Below are positions 394-33,745 of a stretch of DNA of 64,000 bases, piece after piece. A program made the position numbers and the translations under genes. How positions within the stretch are numbered: position 1 is the first letter of the stretch; every line of letters begins with the position of its first letter. The notes under the pieces were generated by a model. That model did not search any database. It saw nothing but the letters and a program-made list of their open reading frames with translations, and was not told the origin of the DNA. This DNA comes from Alphaproteobacteria bacterium (GTDB lineage: Bacteria > Pseudomonadota > Alphaproteobacteria > MPNO01 > UBA2964): NCBI GenBank assembly GCA_009377375.1, contig WHUE01000004.1, forward strand, positions 18,605 through 82,604. The letters are read 5' to 3'.

Positions 394-1316
394 TCGCCGC
401 CGGCCCTGGCCGGAAGGTTGGAGATGCGCATGCGGCGGATACGGCGGGGATCGGCGTCGCGGATTTCGAACTCGACCCCGGAGGAATGGCGGATGATTTC
501 GCCTTTCACCGGCACGCGCCCCGCCAGGTAGGCGACGAGCCCGCCCAGCGTATCGATATCCTCCTCGCGCTCGTCGGGGGTCAGGATGGCCCCGGCCCAC
601 TCCTCGAACTCGTTCAGCTCGACCCGCGCATCGGCGTCGAGCGCGCCGTCGGGGCGCGGCGTCATGACCGGCGCCTCGTCGTCGTCGTGCTCGTCCTCGA
701 TCTCGCCGATGATCTCCTCGACCAGATCCTCGATGGTGACCAGCCCGTCCACGCCGCCGAATTCGTCCACCACCAGCGCCATGTGCATGCGGTTGACGCG
801 CATCTGCAGCAGCAGCTCCAGGATCGGCATGGACGGCGCGACGAACAGCACCTTGCGCACGAGGTCGGTCAGCTTGACGCTGCCAGAGCGGTCGCGCGCC
901 CAGGCCGCCAGCACGTCCTTGATGTGGATCATGCCGGCCACGTCGTCGAGCGTGCCGCGATAGACCGGAATGCGCGAATGCGCCTCCGCACTCATCGTCC
1001 TGACCAGGTCGTCGAGCGAGGTTTCGGCGTCGAGCGCGACGATGTCGGCGCGCGGCACCATCACGTCATAGGCGGTGAGGACATGCAGGTTGAGGATGTT
1101 GCGCAGCAGCATGAGCTCGTCGGCGGAGGCCGGCAGGTGGCCGGGGTCTTCCTGCTGGATGAGCTCCTCGAGGGATTCGCGCAGCCCCGCCCCGTTGCGA
1201 TGGCCGAAGAGGCGGCGGACCAGGTTGCGCAGCGACCCGCCGGACGAAGCGCCGGACGGCGAATCTTCAGGGTCTGGTTCCGCCGGGGCGGGCGGTTTCT
1301 GCGGCATCGCGTTCAT
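390..1316 (-). CDS. corC: CBS-domain hemolysin/CorC-family Mg/Co transport protein
   Basis: DVMVPRADI, HSRIPVY, VVDEFGGVDGLVTIEDLVEEIIGEIEDEHD, C-terminal CorC_HlyC. Confidence 0.9.
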   Translation of the reverse strand: MNAMPQKPPAPAEPDPEDSPSGASSGGSLRNLVRRLFGHRNGAGLRESLEELIQQEDPGHLPASADELMLLRNILNLHVLTAYDVMVPRADIVALDAETSLDDLVRTMSAEAHSRIPVYRGTLDDVAGMIHIKDVLAAWARDRSGSVKLTDLVRKVLFVAPSMPILELLLQMRVNRMHMALVVDEFGGVDGLVTIEDLVEEIIGEIEDEHDDDEAPVMTPRPDGALDADARVELNEFEEWAGAILTPDEREEDIDTLGGLVAYLAGRVPVKGEIIRHSSGVEFEIRDADPRRIRRMRISNLPARAGGE

Positions 1317-1812
1317 AGGCTCCGGGAAGCATGATCCGCCGCGTACGGGTTTTCAATACCGATCTGCGCCAGCGCGCGCGCCTCCGCCCCCTCCATCGCC
1401 TCGGCCTCGGCGTCGGTTTCGTGATCGAACCCCAGCAGATGGAGCACGCCGTGCGCGATCAGGTGGCAGAGATGCGCTTCCGCCGTCTTGCCGTCGCGCG
1501 CGGCTTCGGCCAGCGTCGTCTCCAGCGCCACGGCGACGTCGCCCAGCATCACCGGCGCATCGGGCGCGCCCGGCCCGTTGCCGGCGGGAAAGGCGAGCAC
1601 GTTGGTGGACTCGTCGCGCCGGCGCCAGTCGCGGTTGAGGCCCCGCACGAAATCGTCGTCGGCCAGCGCGATGCTGATCTCGACCGCCCTCGGGGCATCC
1701 GCGGCGGCCAGCGCGGCGCGTGCGGCGCGGCGGCAGGCCGCGGCGGGGCCGGGCAGCGCCGCGCGCCAGCCGGGCGCCGTCACCGAAACCGAAATCACCG
1801 TGCGCGGGCGGG

Positions 1813-1816
<4 letters not shown>
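1313..1816 (-). CDS. ybeY: rRNA maturation RNase YbeY
   Basis: TNVLAFP, LGDVAVALET, HLIAHGVLHLLGFDH. Confidence 0.95.
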
Positions 1817-2855
<1,039 letters not shown>

Positions 2856-2859
<4 letters not shown>

Positions 2860-4226
2860 GCGCTTGCCTGCCGCAAGGGACCTGTGGCTTCCGCCGCCGC
2901 CGCGATGCGGCCGGCGAGCGAGTTGCCGTGCGCCGCCGCGATATGCACGGTCGCGACCCGGCCGAACAGCGAAGCGGCGCGTTCCGCGCCGCCACAGGAG
3001 ACGTGCACCGCCTGCATGTGCGGCGACCGCCCGCCGAGCTGGGCGGGATGCCGGGCGCGGCGGTCGAGAAGCACCTTCACGTCGCGCCCGACGAAAGCGC
3101 GGTTGAAGGCAAGCTGCGAGGCGCCCAGCGCGGCCTGCAGCCGGGCCAGCCGCTCGGCCTTCACGGCTTCGGGGAGCTGGGCGTCCATTTCGGCGGCGGG
3201 AGTGCCGGGGCGCGGGCTGTACTTGAAGGAATAGGCCTGGGCGAACCCGGTCTCGGCCACCAGCGCCAGCGTCGCCTCGAAATCGGCTTCCGTCTCGCCC
3301 GGATGGCCGACGATAAAGTCCGACGACAGCGCGATGTCGGGGCGGACGCGGCGCAGGCGGTCGACGATGCGGCGGTAGTCGTCCGCGGTATGCCCGCGGT
3401 TCATTCGCGCCAGGATCTCGTCCGATCCCGACTGCACCGGCAGGTGCAGACAGGGCATCAGCTTCGGATTCTCGCCATGGGCGCGGATCAGCGCGTCGTC
3501 CATGTCGCGCGGGTGGGAGGTGGTGTAGCGCAGCCGCTCCAGCCCGTCGATGCCGGCCAGCGCGTCGAGCAGCGCGGCCAGCCCGCCTTCGGCGCCGTGC
3601 CAGGCGTTGACGTTCTGTCCCAGCAGGGTGATCTCGCGCGCGCCGCCCTCGACCAGCAGGCGCGCCTCCGCCGTCACCGCGACGAGCGGACGGGAAAATT
3701 CCGCCCCGCGCGTATAGGGGACGACGCAGAAGGCGCAGAACTTGTCGCAGCCTTCCTGCACGGTCAGGAAGGCTGACGGGCCCTGCGCGGCGGCGGGCGG
3801 CAGGTGATCGAACTTGGCCTCGACGGGGAAATCCGTTTCGACCCGCGCGCCGCCCGCTCCCAGACCGCGCAGCATGTCCGGCAGGCGGTGATAGGTCTGC
3901 GGGCCGAACACCAGGTCGACCTGCGGCGCGCGGCGGATAATCTCGTCGCCTTCGGCCTGGGCGACGCAGCCGCCCACCGCGATGGTGACGGCGCGGCCGC
4001 CCGCCATCATGCGCTCTGCGCGCAGGCCGCGCAGCCGGCCCAGCTCGGAATAGATCTTTTCCGCCGCCTTCTCGCGAATGTGGCAGGTGTTCAGGATCAC
4101 CAGATCGGCATCGTCCGGCGCATCGACATTTTCATAGCCCATCGGCGCCAGGACGTCCGCCATGCGGGCGGCGTCATAGACGTTCATCTGGCAGCCGTAG
4201 CTTTTAATGAAGAGCTTTTTCGCCAA
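2856..4226 (-). CDS. miaB: tRNA ms2i6A37 methylthiotransferase MiaB
   Basis: [26 protein letters not shown] radical-SAM motif, C-terminal TRAM. Confidence 0.97.
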
Positions 4227-27594: not shown

Positions 27595-27664
27595 CACGGC
27601 GGCAGTTATGCAGGATTTCGTCGCGCCTGCGCGCGGCGCAGCGAAGCGAAAGGGTGACAGGGCC

Positions 27665-28249
27665 ATGAGCAAGTTCGGCAACAAAACCGAAGACAGCAAG
27701 AAGCCTCTCGAGGCCGCCCCGGCAGCGGCCGCGCCTGCGGCGGCCGGCGCCGCCGCCGTTCCGCTGCCGCTGAAGCAGGGCACGTCCGCCCCCGCCGCCG
27801 CCCCGGCGATGCCGGCGCGCAAGCAGGTGGTGCGGCCGGAGATCGTCCGCCGGACGCGCGACTACACATCGGGTGTCGGGCGCGACGACCACGGGATGGG
27901 CGGCGGCTTCAACGACAGCAAGAAGCTGATCGTCGGCCGCGACATCGCGCTGTCGGGCGAGATCAAGGCCTGCGAGAAGCTGGTCGTACAGGGCCGGGTC
28001 GAAGCCAATATGACCGATTGCAGCGAGATCGAGGTGACCGAGACCGGCACGTTCAAGGGCCAGGCCGAGGTGGACGTGGCCGAGATCGACGGCGCGTTCG
28101 AAGGATCGCTGATCGCGCGCGAGCTGCTGCTGATCCGCGCCAACGGCCACGTGACCGGCACCATCCGCTTCGGCCGGCTGGAAGTCGAGCGCGGCGGCGA
28201 GCTGATGGGCGACGTGCAGGTCTACAAGCCCGTGGGCGGCGAAGACTGA
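27665..28249 (+). CDS. bactofilin (polymer-forming cytoskeletal protein)
   Basis: LIVGRDIALSGEI...LVVQGRVE...IDGAFEG...GHVTGTI beta-helix repeats after a low-complexity N-terminus. Confidence 0.88.
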   Translation: MSKFGNKTEDSKKPLEAAPAAAAPAAAGAAAVPLPLKQGTSAPAAAPAMPARKQVVRPEIVRRTRDYTSGVGRDDHGMGGGFNDSKKLIVGRDIALSGEIKACEKLVVQGRVEANMTDCSEIEVTETGTFKGQAEVDVAEIDGAFEGSLIARELLLIRANGHVTGTIRFGRLEVERGGELMGDVQVYKPVGGED

Positions 28250-28763: not shown

Positions 28764-29408
28764 TCAGGCGACCAGCGTCTTTGCCTTGAACTGGCAGAGG
28801 TCGATGACCGGGCAGGCCGGGCAGTCGGGCTTGCGCGCCTTGCAGATATAGCGCCCGTGCAGGATCAGCCAGTGATGGGCGTGCAGCTTCCACCTGTCCG
28901 GCGTGCGGCGCAGCAGCGCGTCCTCCACCGCCTCGACGGTCTTGCCGGGCGCGAGCCCGGTGCGGTTGCCGACGCGGAAGATGTGGGTGTCCACCGCGAT
29001 GGTCGGCTCGCCGAAGGCGATGTTGAGCACCACGTTGGCGGTCTTGCGCCCGACCCCGGGCAGCGCGACCAGCGCATCGCGGTCCCGCGGCACCGCGCCG
29101 GCGTGACGCTCGATCAACAGCTCCGACAGGCGGATGACGTTCTTCGCCTTGTTGCGGTAGAGCCCGATGGTCTTGATGCAGTCGCGCAGCCGCGCCTCGC
29201 CCAGCGCGACCATCTTTTCCGGCGTGTCGGCCGCCGCGAAGAGCGGCCCCGTGGCCTTGTTGACGCCGACATCGGTCGCCTGGGCCGACAGCACCACGGC
29301 GACCAGCAGCGTGTACGGGTTGATGAAATGCAGCTCGCCCCGCGGCTCCGGATCGCGTTCCGACAGCCGGCGGTAGAACTCGTCCACGGTCTTCAGCGTC
29401 ATGGCCAT
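28764..29408 (-). CDS. nth: endonuclease III
   Basis: LSAQATD, LPGVGRKTANVV, VDTH, CKARKPDCPACPVIDLC. Confidence 0.97.
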   Translation of the reverse strand: MAMTLKTVDEFYRRLSERDPEPRGELHFINPYTLLVAVVLSAQATDVGVNKATGPLFAAADTPEKMVALGEARLRDCIKTIGLYRNKAKNVIRLSELLIERHAGAVPRDRDALVALPGVGRKTANVVLNIAFGEPTIAVDTHIFRVGNRTGLAPGKTVEAVEDALLRRTPDRWKLHAHHWLILHGRYICKARKPDCPACPVIDLCQFKAKTLVA

Positions 29409-29517: not shown

Positions 29518-30060
29518 ATGTCCGGTACGCCAACAGAGATCACGGCGGACGAGGCCGGGGCGCTCGCCGCGCCCGCCCGCTTCGACGCCGTGCTGCATCC
29601 GCACACCAGCCTGAGCCCCCGCGGCTTCCTGCTGTTCATGATGCTGCTCTGCCTGGTCAGCTTCACGGCGGGCATCGCCTTCATGCTGGCGGGGGCGTGG
29701 CCGGTGCTCGGCTTCATGGGGCTCGACGTCGCCATCGTCTGGTTCGCCTTCCGGGCAAGCTACCGGGCGGCGCGGCGCTACGAGCGGCTTCTGCTCACCG
29801 ACAGCGTCCTGACGGTGGAGCGGATCAGCCCGGCGGGCGAACGGCGCACGTGGCGGTTCCAGCCCTACTGGCTGTCGGTGATCCTCGACGACCCGCCCGG
29901 CCCGGACAGCGCGCTGCTGCTGCGCAGCCACGGCAGGGCGCTGGAGATCGGCAAGTTCCTCACCCCCGGCGAGAAGCGCGAGCTGGCCGAGGCGCTGCGC
30001 GCCGAGCTCCGCCGCCTGCGCGAGCCCGCAATGCCCGCTGCCGAAGAAGCCGAGACCTGA
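29518..30060 (+). CDS. DUF2244 integral membrane protein
   Basis: PHTSLSPRGF, GAWPVLGFMGLDV, FQPYW, IGKFLTPGEK. Confidence 0.85.
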   Translation: MSGTPTEITADEAGALAAPARFDAVLHPHTSLSPRGFLLFMMLLCLVSFTAGIAFMLAGAWPVLGFMGLDVAIVWFAFRASYRAARRYERLLLTDSVLTVERISPAGERRTWRFQPYWLSVILDDPPGPDSALLLRSHGRALEIGKFLTPGEKRELAEALRAELRRLREPAMPAAEEAET

Positions 30061-30081: not shown

Positions 30082-30897
30082 TCAGTCCCCGCTGAGCCCC
30101 AGCACGTCCTGCATGGAATAGAGGCCCGGCGTCCGGTCCCGCGCCCAGAGGGCGGCGCGGACGGCGCCGCGGGCGAAGATCTGGCGGGAGGCGGCCTTGT
30201 GGGTGAGCTCCAGCCGCTCGCCGTCGGCGGCGAAGATCACGGAATGGTCGCCGGTGACGTCGCCGCCGCGCAGCGTCGCGAATCCGATATCGCCGCGCCG
30301 CCGCGGGCCGGTCTGGCCGTGGCGGGTGAAGATTCCGGTCTCGTCCAGCGCCACGCCGCGGGCCTCGGCGGCCGCCCGCCCCAGCCCCAGCGCGGTGCCC
30401 GACGGGGCGTCGACCTTGTGCCGATGGTGCATCTCCACGATCTCGATGTCGAACTCGTCGTCGAGCAGCGCGGCGACCTGGCGGGTCAGCGCGAACAGCA
30501 CGTTGACGGCGAGGCTCATGTTCGGCGCGTAGACCACGGGCACGTTGCGCGCGGTGTTGCGCAGCACGGTTTCCTGGTCGCCGTCGAGCCCGGTGGTGCC
30601 GATCACATGGATGCAGCCGGCACTCGAGGCGATCTTCGAATTGCGGATCGTCGCCTCGGGGACCGAGAACTCGATCACCGCCTCGGCGGCGCGGAACAGG
30701 TCATCGGCGTTGTCGGTCACGGTCACGCCGATCTCGCCGATCCCGGCGAGCATGCCGGCGTCCCTGCCGACAGCAGGGCTGCCGTGGGTTTCCGCCGCCG
30801 CCACGACGACGCAGCCGGCGGTTTCCGTCACCTGGCGGATCACCGCGCCGCCCATGCGCCCGGCCGCGCCGACCACGCCGATCTTCATGTCCGCCAT
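30082..30897 (-). CDS. dapB: 4-hydroxy-tetrahydrodipicolinate reductase
   Basis: GAAGRMG, VIGTTG, EMHHRHKVDAPSGTA. Confidence 0.97.
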   Translation of the reverse strand: MADMKIGVVGAAGRMGGAVIRQVTETAGCVVVAAAETHGSPAVGRDAGMLAGIGEIGVTVTDNADDLFRAAEAVIEFSVPEATIRNSKIASSAGCIHVIGTTGLDGDQETVLRNTARNVPVVYAPNMSLAVNVLFALTRQVAALLDDEFDIEIVEMHHRHKVDAPSGTALGLGRAAAEARGVALDETGIFTRHGQTGPRRRGDIGFATLRGGDVTGDHSVIFAADGERLELTHKAASRQIFARGAVRAALWARDRTPGLYSMQDVLGLSGD

Positions 30898-30972
30898 CGA
30901 AACCTCCATACGCGTTCGCGCGGAGTTAAGCACAGGGCAGGCGGGCAGGGAACGGCCGCGGCCTCCGCCGGG

Positions 30973-32547
30973 TCACAGCAGGTACAGCAGCGGCCCGACC
31001 GCGAACCACACCATGTAGCCGAGGGCGCAGACGAGGATGCCGTCGATCCGCCGCGCCGGCCCCGGCGGGGCGGCGTGCAGCCGCGCGAGCAGCCAGACGA
31101 GGAGCGCGCCGTGCAGCAATATCGGCACCAGCACCGGCGCGAACGCCGACCCGCCCGACCCCCGCAGGCTGACCGACACAGCGGCGGCGGCGGCCAGCAC
31201 GACGGCGGCGGCCGCGATCGCGACAGCCGGGCGCGCGCCGAAGCGCACGGCCAGCGTCCGCTTGCCGACGGCGGCGTCGGCGTCGCGGTCTGGCAGGGCG
31301 GCGAGGGCGATGGCCGGCAGGATCGACAACGCCAGCGGCGCGCCGAGCAGCCAGGGCAGGGCGCTGGCGGGCGCGCCGCCGAACAGCAGGAAGCCGACGA
31401 CCGGCACGCCCACGCCATGGGTCAGCGCGACGTCCAGCTCGCCCAGCGTGCGCCAGGACAGGCGGACGGGCGGCAGGGTGTAGCAGATCGCGAGGACGGA
31501 GAGGGCGGCCAGCGCCGCGAGCCAGGGCAGCGCCGGGGCGGGGGCGAGAATGGCGGCGACGGCGGCCAGCGCCCAGCCGGCCACGAAGCAGCCGAGCGCG
31601 GCACGGGCGAGCGCCCGGCGCGACAGGGCGCCGTCGGCGAGCACGCGCGAGCCCCCGTTGAACGGCCCGGCATTGGCGTTGCAAATGTCGGATTCGTAAT
31701 CGACGATCTCGTTGACGAAGACGGTCGCCGCCTCGATCAGGAACAGCGCGGCATAGACGGTCCAGAACGCCGCGGCGCCGAGCGCGTCCGCCCCGCCCGC
31801 CGCCACCGCGCCCAGCGCATAGGCCGCCCAGGTCATCGGATAGAACTGCAACCGGACCGCCCGCAGCCAGGCGCCGGCCAGCCCGAGGACCCTCCGCGTC
31901 CGGCCCGGCCCGGCGGCGCCGCGCAGCGCCGCGCCCTCCTTCGCCGCCCTGGCGATCCAGCGGTCGCGCTGCGCGGCGTCGGACTTGCGCACGGGGCCGA
32001 AGGCGGTGACGCGCACCGGCCCGATGCCGCAGAAGCCCAGCGTCGCCCGCGCCATCGCGTTGTGCCCCGGCCTGACGTACAGAAAGCGGTAGACCGGGCC
32101 CGGCGTGTCCATGGTGGTGATGAGATGGGCGGTGCGGCCGCCGAGCCTGCCCTCGAACCCGGTCAATCCGCCGGATTCGGCGAAGGCGAAGCCGGGCCTG
32201 AGGATGCGGTCGAGAAACGCCTTCATCAGCGCCGGATAGGTCCCCCACCAGGTGGGATAGACGAGGACGAGATGGTCCGCCCAGAGGATCGCCTCTTCCG
32301 CCGCGCGCAGGTCAGGCTCCATCGCCTGGTCGTTGATGCTCGGCGCGACCACGTCGCGGGCGAAGGCCATGCTGGCGAGGTCGAGCCGGCGCAGATCCGC
32401 CCCCGCCTCGCGCGCCGCCCCGGCATAGGCGTCGGCGAGCGCGCCGCAGAGCGATTTCCGCCGCGGATGGCCGAATATCAGCAGAACGCGCGGCGCGCGG
32501 CCGCCGGCACGGGCCCCATCTACGGCCGGCTTCACGGCGGTATCCAT
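30973..32547 (-). CDS. fusion: flavodoxin-like NAD(P)H:quinone oxidoreductase + UbiA/MenA-family prenyltransferase
   Basis: N-half GHPRRKS, WADHLVLVYPTWWGTYPALMKAFLDR; C-half NEIVDYESD, GGSRVL, YTLPPVRL, PDRDADAAVGKRTLAVRFG, multiple TMs; one uninterrupted ORF. Confidence 0.85.
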   Translation of the reverse strand: MDTAVKPAVDGARAGGRAPRVLLIFGHPRRKSLCGALADAYAGAAREAGADLRRLDLASMAFARDVVAPSINDQAMEPDLRAAEEAILWADHLVLVYPTWWGTYPALMKAFLDRILRPGFAFAESGGLTGFEGRLGGRTAHLITTMDTPGPVYRFLYVRPGHNAMARATLGFCGIGPVRVTAFGPVRKSDAAQRDRWIARAAKEGAALRGAAGPGRTRRVLGLAGAWLRAVRLQFYPMTWAAYALGAVAAGGADALGAAAFWTVYAALFLIEAATVFVNEIVDYESDICNANAGPFNGGSRVLADGALSRRALARAALGCFVAGWALAAVAAILAPAPALPWLAALAALSVLAICYTLPPVRLSWRTLGELDVALTHGVGVPVVGFLLFGGAPASALPWLLGAPLALSILPAIALAALPDRDADAAVGKRTLAVRFGARPAVAIAAAAVVLAAAAAVSVSLRGSGGSAFAPVLVPILLHGALLVWLLARLHAAPPGPARRIDGILVCALGYMVWFAVGPLLYLL

Positions 32548-32593
32548 CCCATAGGTATGGGGACGGCCGTGGCGCGGCGCAACGCGCCGCGGC

Positions 32594-33745
32594 TTACTCG
32601 GTGAGGTCTTCCCAGAACTCCTTCGCCTTGGCGAAGAAGCCTTCGGATTCGGGGCTGGTGGATTTGGCGCCGCGCTTCTTGCCCAGGTTTTCGAATTCGC
32701 GCAGCTTTTCCTGCTGGTCCTTGGTGAGGTTGACCGGGGTTTCCACCGTCACCTCGATATACATGTCGCCGCGGCCGCGGCCGTGCAGCCCGACCATGCC
32801 CTTGCCGCGCAGGCGGAAGCGGTGGCCGTTCTGGGTGCCGGCGGGGATGGAGACCTTGGCGCGCCCGCCCTCGACCGTCGGCACCTCGACCGCGCCGCCG
32901 AGCGCCGCGGTGGTCATGGGGATCGGCACGCTGCAGAACACGTTGGCGCCGTCGCGCTGGAACAGCGGATGCGCGGCGATGGCGATGAAGATATAGAGAT
33001 CGCCGGGCGGGGCGCCGTTGGCCCCGGCCTCGCCCTCGCCGGTGAGGCGGATGCGGGTGCCGTCCTCCACCCCGGCGGGGATGTTGACGGACAGGGTCTT
33101 TTCCTTGCGCACGCGGCCGGCGCCCTGGCAGGACTTGCATGGGTCCTCGATGGTCTGGCCCGCGCCGCGGCATTGCGGGCAGGTGCGCTCCACCGTGAAG
33201 AATCCCTGCTGGGTGCGGACCTTGCCGGCGCCCCCGCAGGCGGGGCAGGCGCTGGGCGCGCTGCCCTTGGCCGCCCCGGACCCGCCGCAATGCTCGCAGG
33301 CGACCGAGGTGGGCACGCGGATGCGCGTCTCGCGCCCCTTGTAGGCATCCTCGAGGCTGATCTCCAGGTTGTAGCGCAGGTCGGCCCCGCGCCGGCGGGC
33401 ATTGCCGCGCCGGCCGGAGCCGCCGACGAAATCGCCGAACATCTCGTCGAAGATATCGGCGAAGCCGGCGCCGAAACCGCCCGCGCCGCCGCCGCTGAAG
33501 CCGCCGGCCCCGCCGGAGCCGTCGAACGCGGCGTGGCCGAACTGGTCGTAGGCGGCGCGCTTCTGGTCGTCCTTCAGGACGTCATAGGCCTCGCTGATTT
33601 CCTTGAACCGGTTCTCGGCCGAGACATCGCCCGGATTGCGGTCCGGGTGATACTGCATGGCCAGCTTGCGGTAGGCGCGCTTGAGGTCGTCCGCGCTCGC
33701 CGAACGGGAGACGCCAAGCGCCTCATAGTAGTCCTGCTTGGCCAT
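32594..33745 (-). CDS. dnaJ: chaperone DnaJ
   Basis: J domain HPD, G/F region, four CxxCxGxG. Confidence 0.98.

Follow-up and report, generated by a model that had tools for sequence, protein, structure and literature searches.

Quinone reductases of the MdaB/NQO type are described as homodimers with the flavin at the subunit interface and a pair of Trp residues stacked on it; in the enzyme of M. marburgensis (MmNQO) the residues reported to pack on the flavin are Trp89 and Trp90 (PMC4274662). Among prenyltransferases of the UbiA family, AfUbiA is described as binding Mg2+ through N68, D72, D198 and D202, equivalents of the Asp-motif residues considered below, with its N-terminus and both Asp-rich motifs facing the cytoplasm (PMC4106721). 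UBIAD1 is reported to make no menaquinone-4 (MK-4) from menadione unless a reductant is present; according to the authors, menadione must first be reduced to the hydroquinone (PMC4398444). Here we analyze a gene that encodes relatives of both kinds of enzymes in a single chain. It occupies positions 30973..32547 (minus strand) of a 64,000-nucleotide stretch of contig WHUE01000004.1 from an alphaproteobacterial genome (assembly GCA_009377375.1); this whole stretch is referred to as the window.

In the open reading frame (ORF) list of the window the gene is an intact ORF of 524 residues with an ATG start and a stop codon, and its product matches both PF02525 and PF01040 above their cut-offs, which bears out the architecture proposed in the initial annotation, a reductase and a prenyltransferase in one ORF. 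Both halves look catalytically intact, to judge by their conserved residues. By analogy with the relatives of each half, the protein may be a coupled enzyme, in which a free quinone would be reduced by NAD(P)H and the resulting hydroquinone would then be prenylated; we assign to this reading a probability of roughly 0.5.

Two domains of the fusion protein

The N-terminal half is a Flavodoxin_2 quinone-reductase domain of the NQO/MdaB type (residues 20-199; 31951..32490, on the minus strand, as are all features within the gene). It matches Pfam PF02525 with E 8.7e-36, at 123.9 bits against a cut-off of 27, over profile positions 2-192 of 198. In a PDB search with a profile of 28 homologues, MdaB from S. 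mutans (3lcm/4f8y) ranked first (E 6.2e-35), followed by M. marburgensis NQO, NQO2 and NQO1. When the AlphaFold2 (AF2) model was superposed with VIA-align, this half gave Z 21.9 with 3lcm (root-mean-square deviation (rmsd) 2.4 Å, 187 residues), Z 21.6 with NQO1 (4cet) and Z 21.4 with NQO2, the rmsd over the MdaB/NQO set ranging from 2.4 to 2.6 Å. The list of a Foldseek search against the PDB was filled by the N-terminal domain, and the matches given below for the C-terminal domain come from the wide VIA-align search. The closest relative of the N-terminal half, as far as such comparisons can tell, appears to be S. mutans MdaB, which depends on flavin adenine dinucleotide and reduces menadione.

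The correspondence extends to the flavin site. The loop PTWW (residues 98-101, 32245..32256), invariant in the 28 homologues, carries a Trp pair that is predicted to stack on the flavin and aligns to the WW of 3lcm and 4r81. In particular, W100, W101, P105, K109 and D113 are invariant in the same homologues and align to Trp89, Trp90, Pro94, Lys98 and Asp102 of the MmNQO flavin site; Ser91 and Tyr111 of MmNQO are replaced by Gly and Phe, respectively. Two loops with low values of the predicted local distance difference test (pLDDT), residues 101-103 and 127-129, may be interface or flavin loops in the model.

The NCBIfam scan of the whole protein yielded no model at its cut-off, the best one for the N-terminal half being a YcaK-like NAD(P)H oxidoreductase (58.8 bits, cut-off 162). 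The same scan bears on another role for this half, that of a KefF-like regulator or redox sensor gating the prenyltransferase by the NAD(P)H/NAD(P)+ ratio or by the quinone state, as KefF acts on KefC. KefF is a Flavodoxin_2 ancillary subunit of a membrane protein, the model can be superposed on KefF-KefC (3eyw) with Z 18.0, and the KefF model of NCBIfam gives a weak match (E 5.8e-8). Still, the scores of KefF (32.3 bits, cut-off 210) and KefG (16.7 bits, cut-off 240) are far too low for identity as a subunit of either type, the MdaB/NQO enzymes are clearly closer, and the invariance of the flavin-contact residues suggests that catalysis has been kept, although KefF likewise keeps its flavin. 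We regard a regulatory role as improbable.

The soluble domain is connected to the first membrane helix by a helical linker (residues 200-231, 31855..31950), where the AF2 model has helices at residues 191-206, 208-211 and 216-231; W197, L208 and W227 of the linker region are invariant in the 28 homologues. The C-terminal half is a UbiA-fold domain of the MenA/UBIAD1-like type (residues 232-524, 30976..31854; Pfam PF01040 and AF2 model). The match to PF01040 covers residues 242-489 (E 2.5e-21; 76.5 bits, cut-off 34.2). The model, with mean pLDDT 82.7 and predicted template modelling score 0.72, has nine helices in residues 233-523, and the Asp-rich motifs follow helices 2 and 6. The first of them is NEIVDYESD (residues 279-287, 31687..31713) and the second one is PDRDADAAVGKRTL (residues 419-432, 31252..31293), both found in the translation as initially annotated. 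The profile match, both Asp-rich motifs, the number of helices and the fold make this half a member of the UbiA superfamily.

Residues N279, D283 and D287 of the first motif and D420, D424 and K429 of the second one are invariant in the 28 fused homologues and in the alignment with canonical MenA. This weighs against the possibility that the UbiA-like half is a mere membrane anchor or quinone-binding platform incapable of prenyl transfer. Tethering a soluble reductase to the membrane would be a simple reason for a fusion, and nothing more specific speaks for it; the invariant residues are those of Mg2+ and diphosphate binding, shared with active MenA, and an anchor would not conserve them. The related suggestion that the ORF itself is an artefact is countered by the contigs of two separate metagenome runs (X1, 2332 nucleotides; X3, 2874 nucleotides), which cover all of 30900-32650. 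They differ from the window by 103 and 118 letters, all listed insertions and deletions within the ORF preserve the frame, and a single-nucleotide deletion at 30970 falls outside it. As independent contigs span the stretch with the frame kept, the ORF is not an assembly artefact, and the stop or frameshift that would have undermined the annotation was looked for in them and not seen. A protein with 93% identity and the 75 fused loci among 80 described below argue in the same direction, and both explanations, anchor and artefact, are very improbable.

As regards more specific assignment, the best match of the C-terminal half in the PDB profile search is UBIAD1 (8djk_B, E 1.4e-6, full length), and UBIAD1 (8djm_B) is also the top structure in VIA-align (Z 23.1, rmsd 2.9 Å, 268 residues, 15% identity); UBIAD1, DGGGP synthase, ApUbiA and AfUbiA together cover the range of Z 21.6-23.1 over 264-274 residues. 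In NCBIfam the best matches of this half are MenA models, all below their cut-offs (the top one, NF004751, at 46.3 bits against 264), and TIGR00751 (MenA) is not listed for the fusion protein at E <= 0.01, while the canonical MenAs of loci L076 and L079 pass it. The fusion family and the bacterial and archaeal MenAs have in common the motifs N-x3-D-x3-D, (F/Y)TGGSR, Y-x-x-PP, R-G-L-G-E, GK-x-T and D-x3-D-x4-K. Hence by these comparisons the C-terminal half appears MenA-like in its machinery, yet it would not be classed as MenA by curated model or by tree. Identity as a canonical MenA was rejected, the protein being under every model cut-off, outside MenA in the tree and mostly in hosts without a source of 1,4-dihydroxy-2-naphthoate (DHNA).

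Among the canonical MenAs collected along the way, the one of Lentisalinibacter salinarum (L079, 5866-9510; also L080-L082 and L084) is just over the TIGR00751 cut-off and is encoded directly upstream of nqrA-nqrB, the genes of the Na+-translocating NADH:quinone reductase, which is unusual for a gammaproteobacterium.

Conservation and transfer of the fusion gene

Among 5.8 billion clustered proteins (clusters at 90% identity), of which 8000 candidates were scored, 455 clusters matched at E <= 1e-3. All of the best 120 of these 455 homologues carry both PF01040 and PF02525; one of the 120 is 93% identical to the window protein and the remainder are 48-57% identical. Their database names are automatic, for example 'NAD(P)H-dependent oxidoreductase' or 'putative NADPH-quinone reductase/1,4-dihydroxy-2-naphthoate octaprenyltransferase'. 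An alignment of the shortest members of the family, used as the query against one genome from each species, retrieved 293 relatives, and domain hidden Markov models were applied to the best 80 of these loci. Both domains are in one ORF in 75 of the 80. Fusion is therefore the prevailing and conserved state in this family, which speaks for selection of the fused form, and the concern that homologs are normally two separate genes did not materialize.

In three of the five remaining loci (L094, L107 and L163) the gene is split or has a frameshift, and the part for the reductase lies a short way upstream. The separate ORFs of L094 and L107 adjoin, which suggests frameshifts; in L163 (Vreelandella rituensis, 797-3873) the parts are about 1.2 kb apart, suggesting an insertion or disruption. 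In the other two, from Ilyobacter and a Methanofastidiosum metagenome-assembled genome, there is no reductase anywhere in the locus. We take both to be strict anaerobes, and reductase-less members in anaerobes fit a reductase that matters where hydroquinones oxidise, although this proves nothing. In a quick tree the stand-alone members of the C-terminal domain nest among the fused ones, and therefore the loss of the reductase looks secondary. Apparent stand-alone forms of 358-360 residues were discarded, as many of them begin at a conserved Met inside the reductase domain and represent shortened gene calls of fused genes.

According to record titles, the hosts include members of the alpha-, beta- and gammaproteobacteria, Bacteroidota, Balneolota, Rhodothermota, Acidobacteriota, Gemmatimonadota, Planctomycetota and Actinomycetota as well as three haloarchaea. 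The family is thus large, and as a single gene it has crossed the borders between phyla and between domains of life. As the initial annotation had allowed for, the architecture as such is no novelty, with hundreds of automatically named members in the databases. Consistent with its statement that no characterised example was known, no published Flavodoxin_2-UbiA fusion was found in the open-access and bioRxiv papers searched. What is new is the recognition of a coherent, monophyletic, horizontally mobile family and the mechanistic proposal made for it.

With the C-terminal half alone as the query, HMMER retrieves 2201 cluster representatives at E <= 1e-3, of which 96 reach E <= 1e-30. Many UbiA-domain proteins of 447-479 residues (P0279-P0353, e.g. 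P0285 and P0301) have an N-terminal extension of about 160 residues with no Pfam match and about 30% identity to the prenyltransferase domain of the family; some of them are named from Chloroflexota or Limnocylindrales.

The tree of the C-terminal domain has 39 rows, drawn from sequences other than UBIAD1 and MqnP and with the long-branch sequences L078 and L003 left out. In this tree 27 family members form one side of a branch with support 88/74, and the family together with two sister sequences forms a clade (support 99/99) that excludes four MenAs passing TIGR00751. Of the three-way placement against MenA, UBIAD1 and UbiA that had been suggested, the separation from canonical MenA was obtained, the UBIAD1 comparison falling outside this set of rows. 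In a first quick tree L003 fell inside the family; this was treated as a long-branch artefact, and the tree was rebuilt without L003 and L078. L003 (contig C222 of the window genome, 1408-2862) is a third UbiA-family paralogue of 485 residues with a long Arg/Gly-rich N-terminal extension; its motif resembles those of decaprenyl-phosphate phosphoribosyltransferases, the family name being read from the motif.

The N-terminal domains of 21 fused proteins are likewise separated by one branch from 21 stand-alone homologues (Shimodaira-Hasegawa-like approximate likelihood-ratio test 97), and the window protein has the same nearest partners in the trees of both domains. Moreover, pairwise identities of the two domains (means 64% for the N-terminal and 56% for the C-terminal one) correlate with r = 0.89 over 378 pairs; as related sequences share history, this value would speak for co-inheritance only. 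The monophyly of each domain, taken together with their matching histories, points to the two domains having been fused once and the gene having since been transferred as a whole.

Such a transfer can be seen directly in the window genome. The fusion gene lies 46 nucleotides downstream of dnaJ (32594..33745, minus strand) and 39 nucleotides upstream of dapB (30082..30933, minus strand), all three on the same strand, with dnaK further upstream, so the ORF list agrees with the annotated placement between dnaJ and dapB. No full-length match was found in 40 relatives (24 of the same family and 16 of the same order), and among 400 further genomes taken from the class only 5 contain one. In all five same-family genomes examined dnaJ is directly followed by dapB, with a gap of about 65-115 nucleotides; their dnaJ genes are 67-71% identical to the one in the window and the dapB matches are 64-69% identical. 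As dnaJ abuts dapB in all of them, the fusion gene is a true insertion, and, given its absence from the 40 relatives, the window genome has gained a lone 1.6-kb gene between housekeeping genes.

The upstream edge of the insertion is a spacer of 46 nucleotides after the dnaJ stop codon (32548..32593, minus strand), in which a G+C-rich inverted repeat can be read; for flanking repeats and mobile-element genes the spacers were read by eye only. Neither promoter-like sites around the gene nor terminator-like sites beside it, including the 46-nucleotide spacer, were scored, and no Rfam families or tRNAs were found anywhere in the window. None of the 20 sequencing runs listed as sharing words with the region was of RNA, the word share being at most 0.17 in all 20. 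Nearby genes encode a bactofilin (27608..28249, plus strand), endonuclease III (28764..29408, minus strand) and a DUF2244 membrane protein (29518..30060, plus strand), and the latter two likewise adjoin dapB in some relatives.

Gene neighbours were compared in 22 fused loci by all-against-all BLAST, with 82 neighbours scanned against Pfam, and then in 99 loci by clustering (without L126 and L173, which share their contigs with L011 and L005). None of the neighbour families reaches beyond 7 of the 99 loci or 6 genera, and the recurrent ones are generic (GGDEF-EAL, ABC ATPase, SDR, GSDH). The gene travels and works alone, without partner genes, and in the absence of helper genes the fusion protein works with what any host already supplies.

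The tree and the neighbourhoods both bear on the nature of the acceptor. The family forms a clade apart from MenA and is under every MenA cut-off, which leaves its acceptor specificity open, and the acceptor might be no quinone at all, being instead a phenazine, a flavin-like compound, a hydroxyquinoline or a phenolic xenobiotic that the N-terminal domain reduces to a nucleophilic form. The relatives of Flavodoxin_2 include azoreductases and enzymes with broad acceptor ranges, and the UbiA superfamily is described as serving many acceptors (PMC4106721). On the other hand, the closest solved relatives of both halves are quinone enzymes, the family shares with MenA not just the generic Asp motifs but GGSR and RGLGE as well, and the neighbourhoods of the 99 loci contain no biosynthetic cluster that would make such a compound. 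A non-quinone acceptor therefore seems rather unlikely to us, and a free quinone as the substrate is retained in the following.

Quinone pathways of the hosts and proposed order of the reaction steps

Ten of the approximately 293 carrier genomes were checked for quinone pathways. In the first five (the window genome, Modicisalibacter, Pseudosulfitobacter, Microbaculum and Marinibaculum) MenB, MenD and MqnA/D reach the cut-offs in none, while canonical UbiA, searched for in these five, is present in all. In particular, no MenB, MenD or MqnA/D reaches the cut-off anywhere in the window genome, which is 93.5% complete. Of the other five, Natrinema encodes MenB and two copies of MenA, MqnA/D are present in Pedobacter and Geothrix, and none of MenA, MenB and MqnA/D is over the cut-offs in Nitrotoga and Marinobacter. 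Thus, neither MenB nor MqnA/D is over the cut-offs in seven of the ten carriers, which by this criterion would have no known route to a naphthoquinone head group, in line with the expectation that carriers lack menF-menB or the futalosine pathway; the other three have a pathway. The presence of the gene is independent of the quinone type of the host. The annotated lack of men and ubi genes in the window holds for the families searched for, and these were searched for genome-wide, with other ubi genes outside that search; the other three UbiA-family matches of the window genome are on other contigs.

According to the reading that we prefer, the cytoplasmic NQO/MdaB-type flavoprotein domain would take a hydride from NAD(P)H and use it for the two-electron reduction of the head group of a free 1,4-quinone, not yet prenylated, which would yield the hydroquinone. 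To judge from its relatives, this domain probably forms a homodimer that holds the flavin between its two subunits. The MenA/UBIAD1-like domain would then attach a polyprenyl chain from the polyprenyl-diphosphate pool of the host in a Mg2+-dependent C-prenylation, giving a membrane-anchored prenylquinol. As the N-terminus and the Asp motifs of AfUbiA are cytoplasmic, the N-terminal reductase is placed on the same side as the polar cavity of the prenyltransferase. In effect, the fusion would supply enzymatically the reductant needed in a UBIAD1-type reaction. Likely acceptors are naphthoquinones (menadione-like compounds, 1,4-naphthoquinone or oxidised DHNA) or small benzoquinones. To judge by the relatives of both halves, compounds like menadione and oxidised DHNA are the better candidates, small benzoquinones, including the ubiquinone head group, being possible. 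The benefit may consist in the capture of redox-cycling quinones and/or in their salvage into respiratory or antioxidant quinones. What the sequences show directly is how the domains are arranged, which motifs are conserved, where the family belongs, how it is distributed and that the gene was inserted alone. We infer the order of steps, the substrates, the dimer, channelling, the cofactor and docking, and among the readings considered the quinone-first, two-step one is the most economical.

The order of steps could be the reverse one, with prenylation of an already reduced acceptor first and the reductase acting on the prenylated product or on the membrane quinone pool, where it would prepare ring methylation or yield an antioxidant quinol, as a membrane-anchored counterpart of NdbB/NDC1. 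In phylloquinone synthesis NdbB/NDC1 is reported to reduce demethylphylloquinone after MenA and before MenG (PMC5299476). In the Victivallales contig L076 (349-2629) a gene for a Pyr_redox_2 protein resembling type II NAD(P)H dehydrogenases comes directly after a canonical MenA gene, a pair that recalls the MenA-NdbB/NDC1 pairing of phylloquinone synthesis, and in 3 of 22 loci (L007, UbiE-like; L020; L040) one of the four closest neighbouring genes encodes a methyltransferase. Moreover, intact and co-inherited domains fit either order equally. At the same time, NQO/MdaB-type enzymes are soluble and the acceptors characterised for them are described as small quinones, in seven of the ten carriers there is no known way of obtaining DHNA or a similar hydroquinone acceptor, and the methyltransferase neighbours are not conserved over the 99 loci. 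We consider the prenylation-first order unlikely, though it is the strongest of the alternatives.

Several observations weigh against reduction of a free quinone followed by prenylation. The chemistry is drawn wholly from relatives, and the reductase could equally act after prenylation, in the manner described for NdbB/NDC1 (PMC5299476). No gene neighbourhood points to a pathway. The Z of 23.1 for UBIAD1 is tied with those of other UbiA folds (22.1, 22.1 and 21.6). Three of the ten carriers (Natrinema, Pedobacter and Geothrix) make menaquinone and do not need salvage, and therefore salvage cannot be the sole reason for keeping the gene. Finally, two sister prenyltransferases of the family, P0253 with an N-terminal DCC1-like thiol-disulfide oxidoreductase domain (motif D-x-x-C-x-x-C) and P0254 with a PNPOx-like FMN-binding barrel, were set aside as independent examples of redox fusions: each is the sole carrier of its domain pair (among 108 and 70 matches, respectively), and as singletons, which may be rare real fusions or gene-calling artefacts, they carry little weight.

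What survives of the initial proposal that the protein reduces a quinone and passes the hydroquinone to prenylation is its architecture, catalytic motifs and logic, with no specific substrate or physiological role supported. Its extension to salvage or detoxification of exogenous quinones agrees with the seven carriers in which MenB and MqnA/D fall short of the cut-offs and is limited by the three that make menaquinone. More tentatively, the gene could be a horizontally mobile one-gene module for quinone capture, which would take up environmental head groups, reduce them with NAD(P)H and prenylate them, and so equip the membranes of ubiquinone-only bacteria without the men and futalosine pathways with menaquinone-type or other prenylquinols. 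In prokaryotes it would then do within one covalent chain what in animals takes menadione by way of a quinone reductase to UBIAD1; we view this as possible but doubtful.

If reduction followed by prenylation is correct, the family would provide a 'Rosetta stone' argument that a dedicated two-electron reductase is required when free quinones are prenylated by enzymes of the MenA/UBIAD1 type. It would also offer organisms without menaquinone biosynthesis a simple route to gain prenylquinones or to disarm redox-cycling quinones, and serve as a compact one-gene tool for converting cheap quinone precursors into prenylquinones. Microbial communities have been observed to turn menadione into long-chain menaquinones, a reaction for which the source only proposes MenA as the enzyme (PMC7928036), and the fusion would be a candidate for that microbial prenylation.

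Comparison with known systems

The reductase half shares with the MdaB/NQO enzymes (S. mutans MdaB 3lcm/4f8y, MmNQO 4r81, NQO1 and NQO2) the family profile, the fold, the WW pair and the Pro, Lys and Asp of the pocket. These enzymes are soluble stand-alone homodimers, whereas the reductase of the fusion is covalently tied to a nine-helix membrane enzyme.

Two systems combine a redox enzyme with prenylation in other ways. The NdbB/NDC1 and MenA/MenG system is similar in that a dedicated NAD(P)H-dependent quinone reduction is reported to be coupled to the MenA step (PMC5299476), and differs in that NdbB/NDC1 are type II NAD(P)H dehydrogenases of another fold, are separate proteins and act after prenylation. 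In the IspH-UbiA 'Rosetta stone' fusions, as described in PMC4746011, a soluble redox enzyme is also fused to a UbiA-family prenyltransferase; however, the 4Fe-4S enzyme IspH makes precursors of the prenyl donor and is not an acceptor reductase.

MenA resembles the C-terminal half in the UbiA fold, the set of motifs and the best NCBIfam matches, and its acceptor is a hydroquinone. Unlike the fusion protein, MenA has no N-terminal reductase; moreover, seven of the ten carriers are without the DHNA pathway, and the fusion family forms a separate clade.

UBIAD1 is the best solved relative of the C-terminal half by profile and by Z, and is reported to prenylate menadione only once it has been reduced (PMC4398444). 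It has, however, only 15% identity to this half, and its Z is tied with those of archaeal UbiA homologues and DGGGP synthase. NQO1 acts as the in vivo reductase for UBIAD1. As the C-terminal half resembles UBIAD1 and the N-terminal half resembles NQO1/NQO2, the fusion would join in one chain activities that are split over two proteins in animals.

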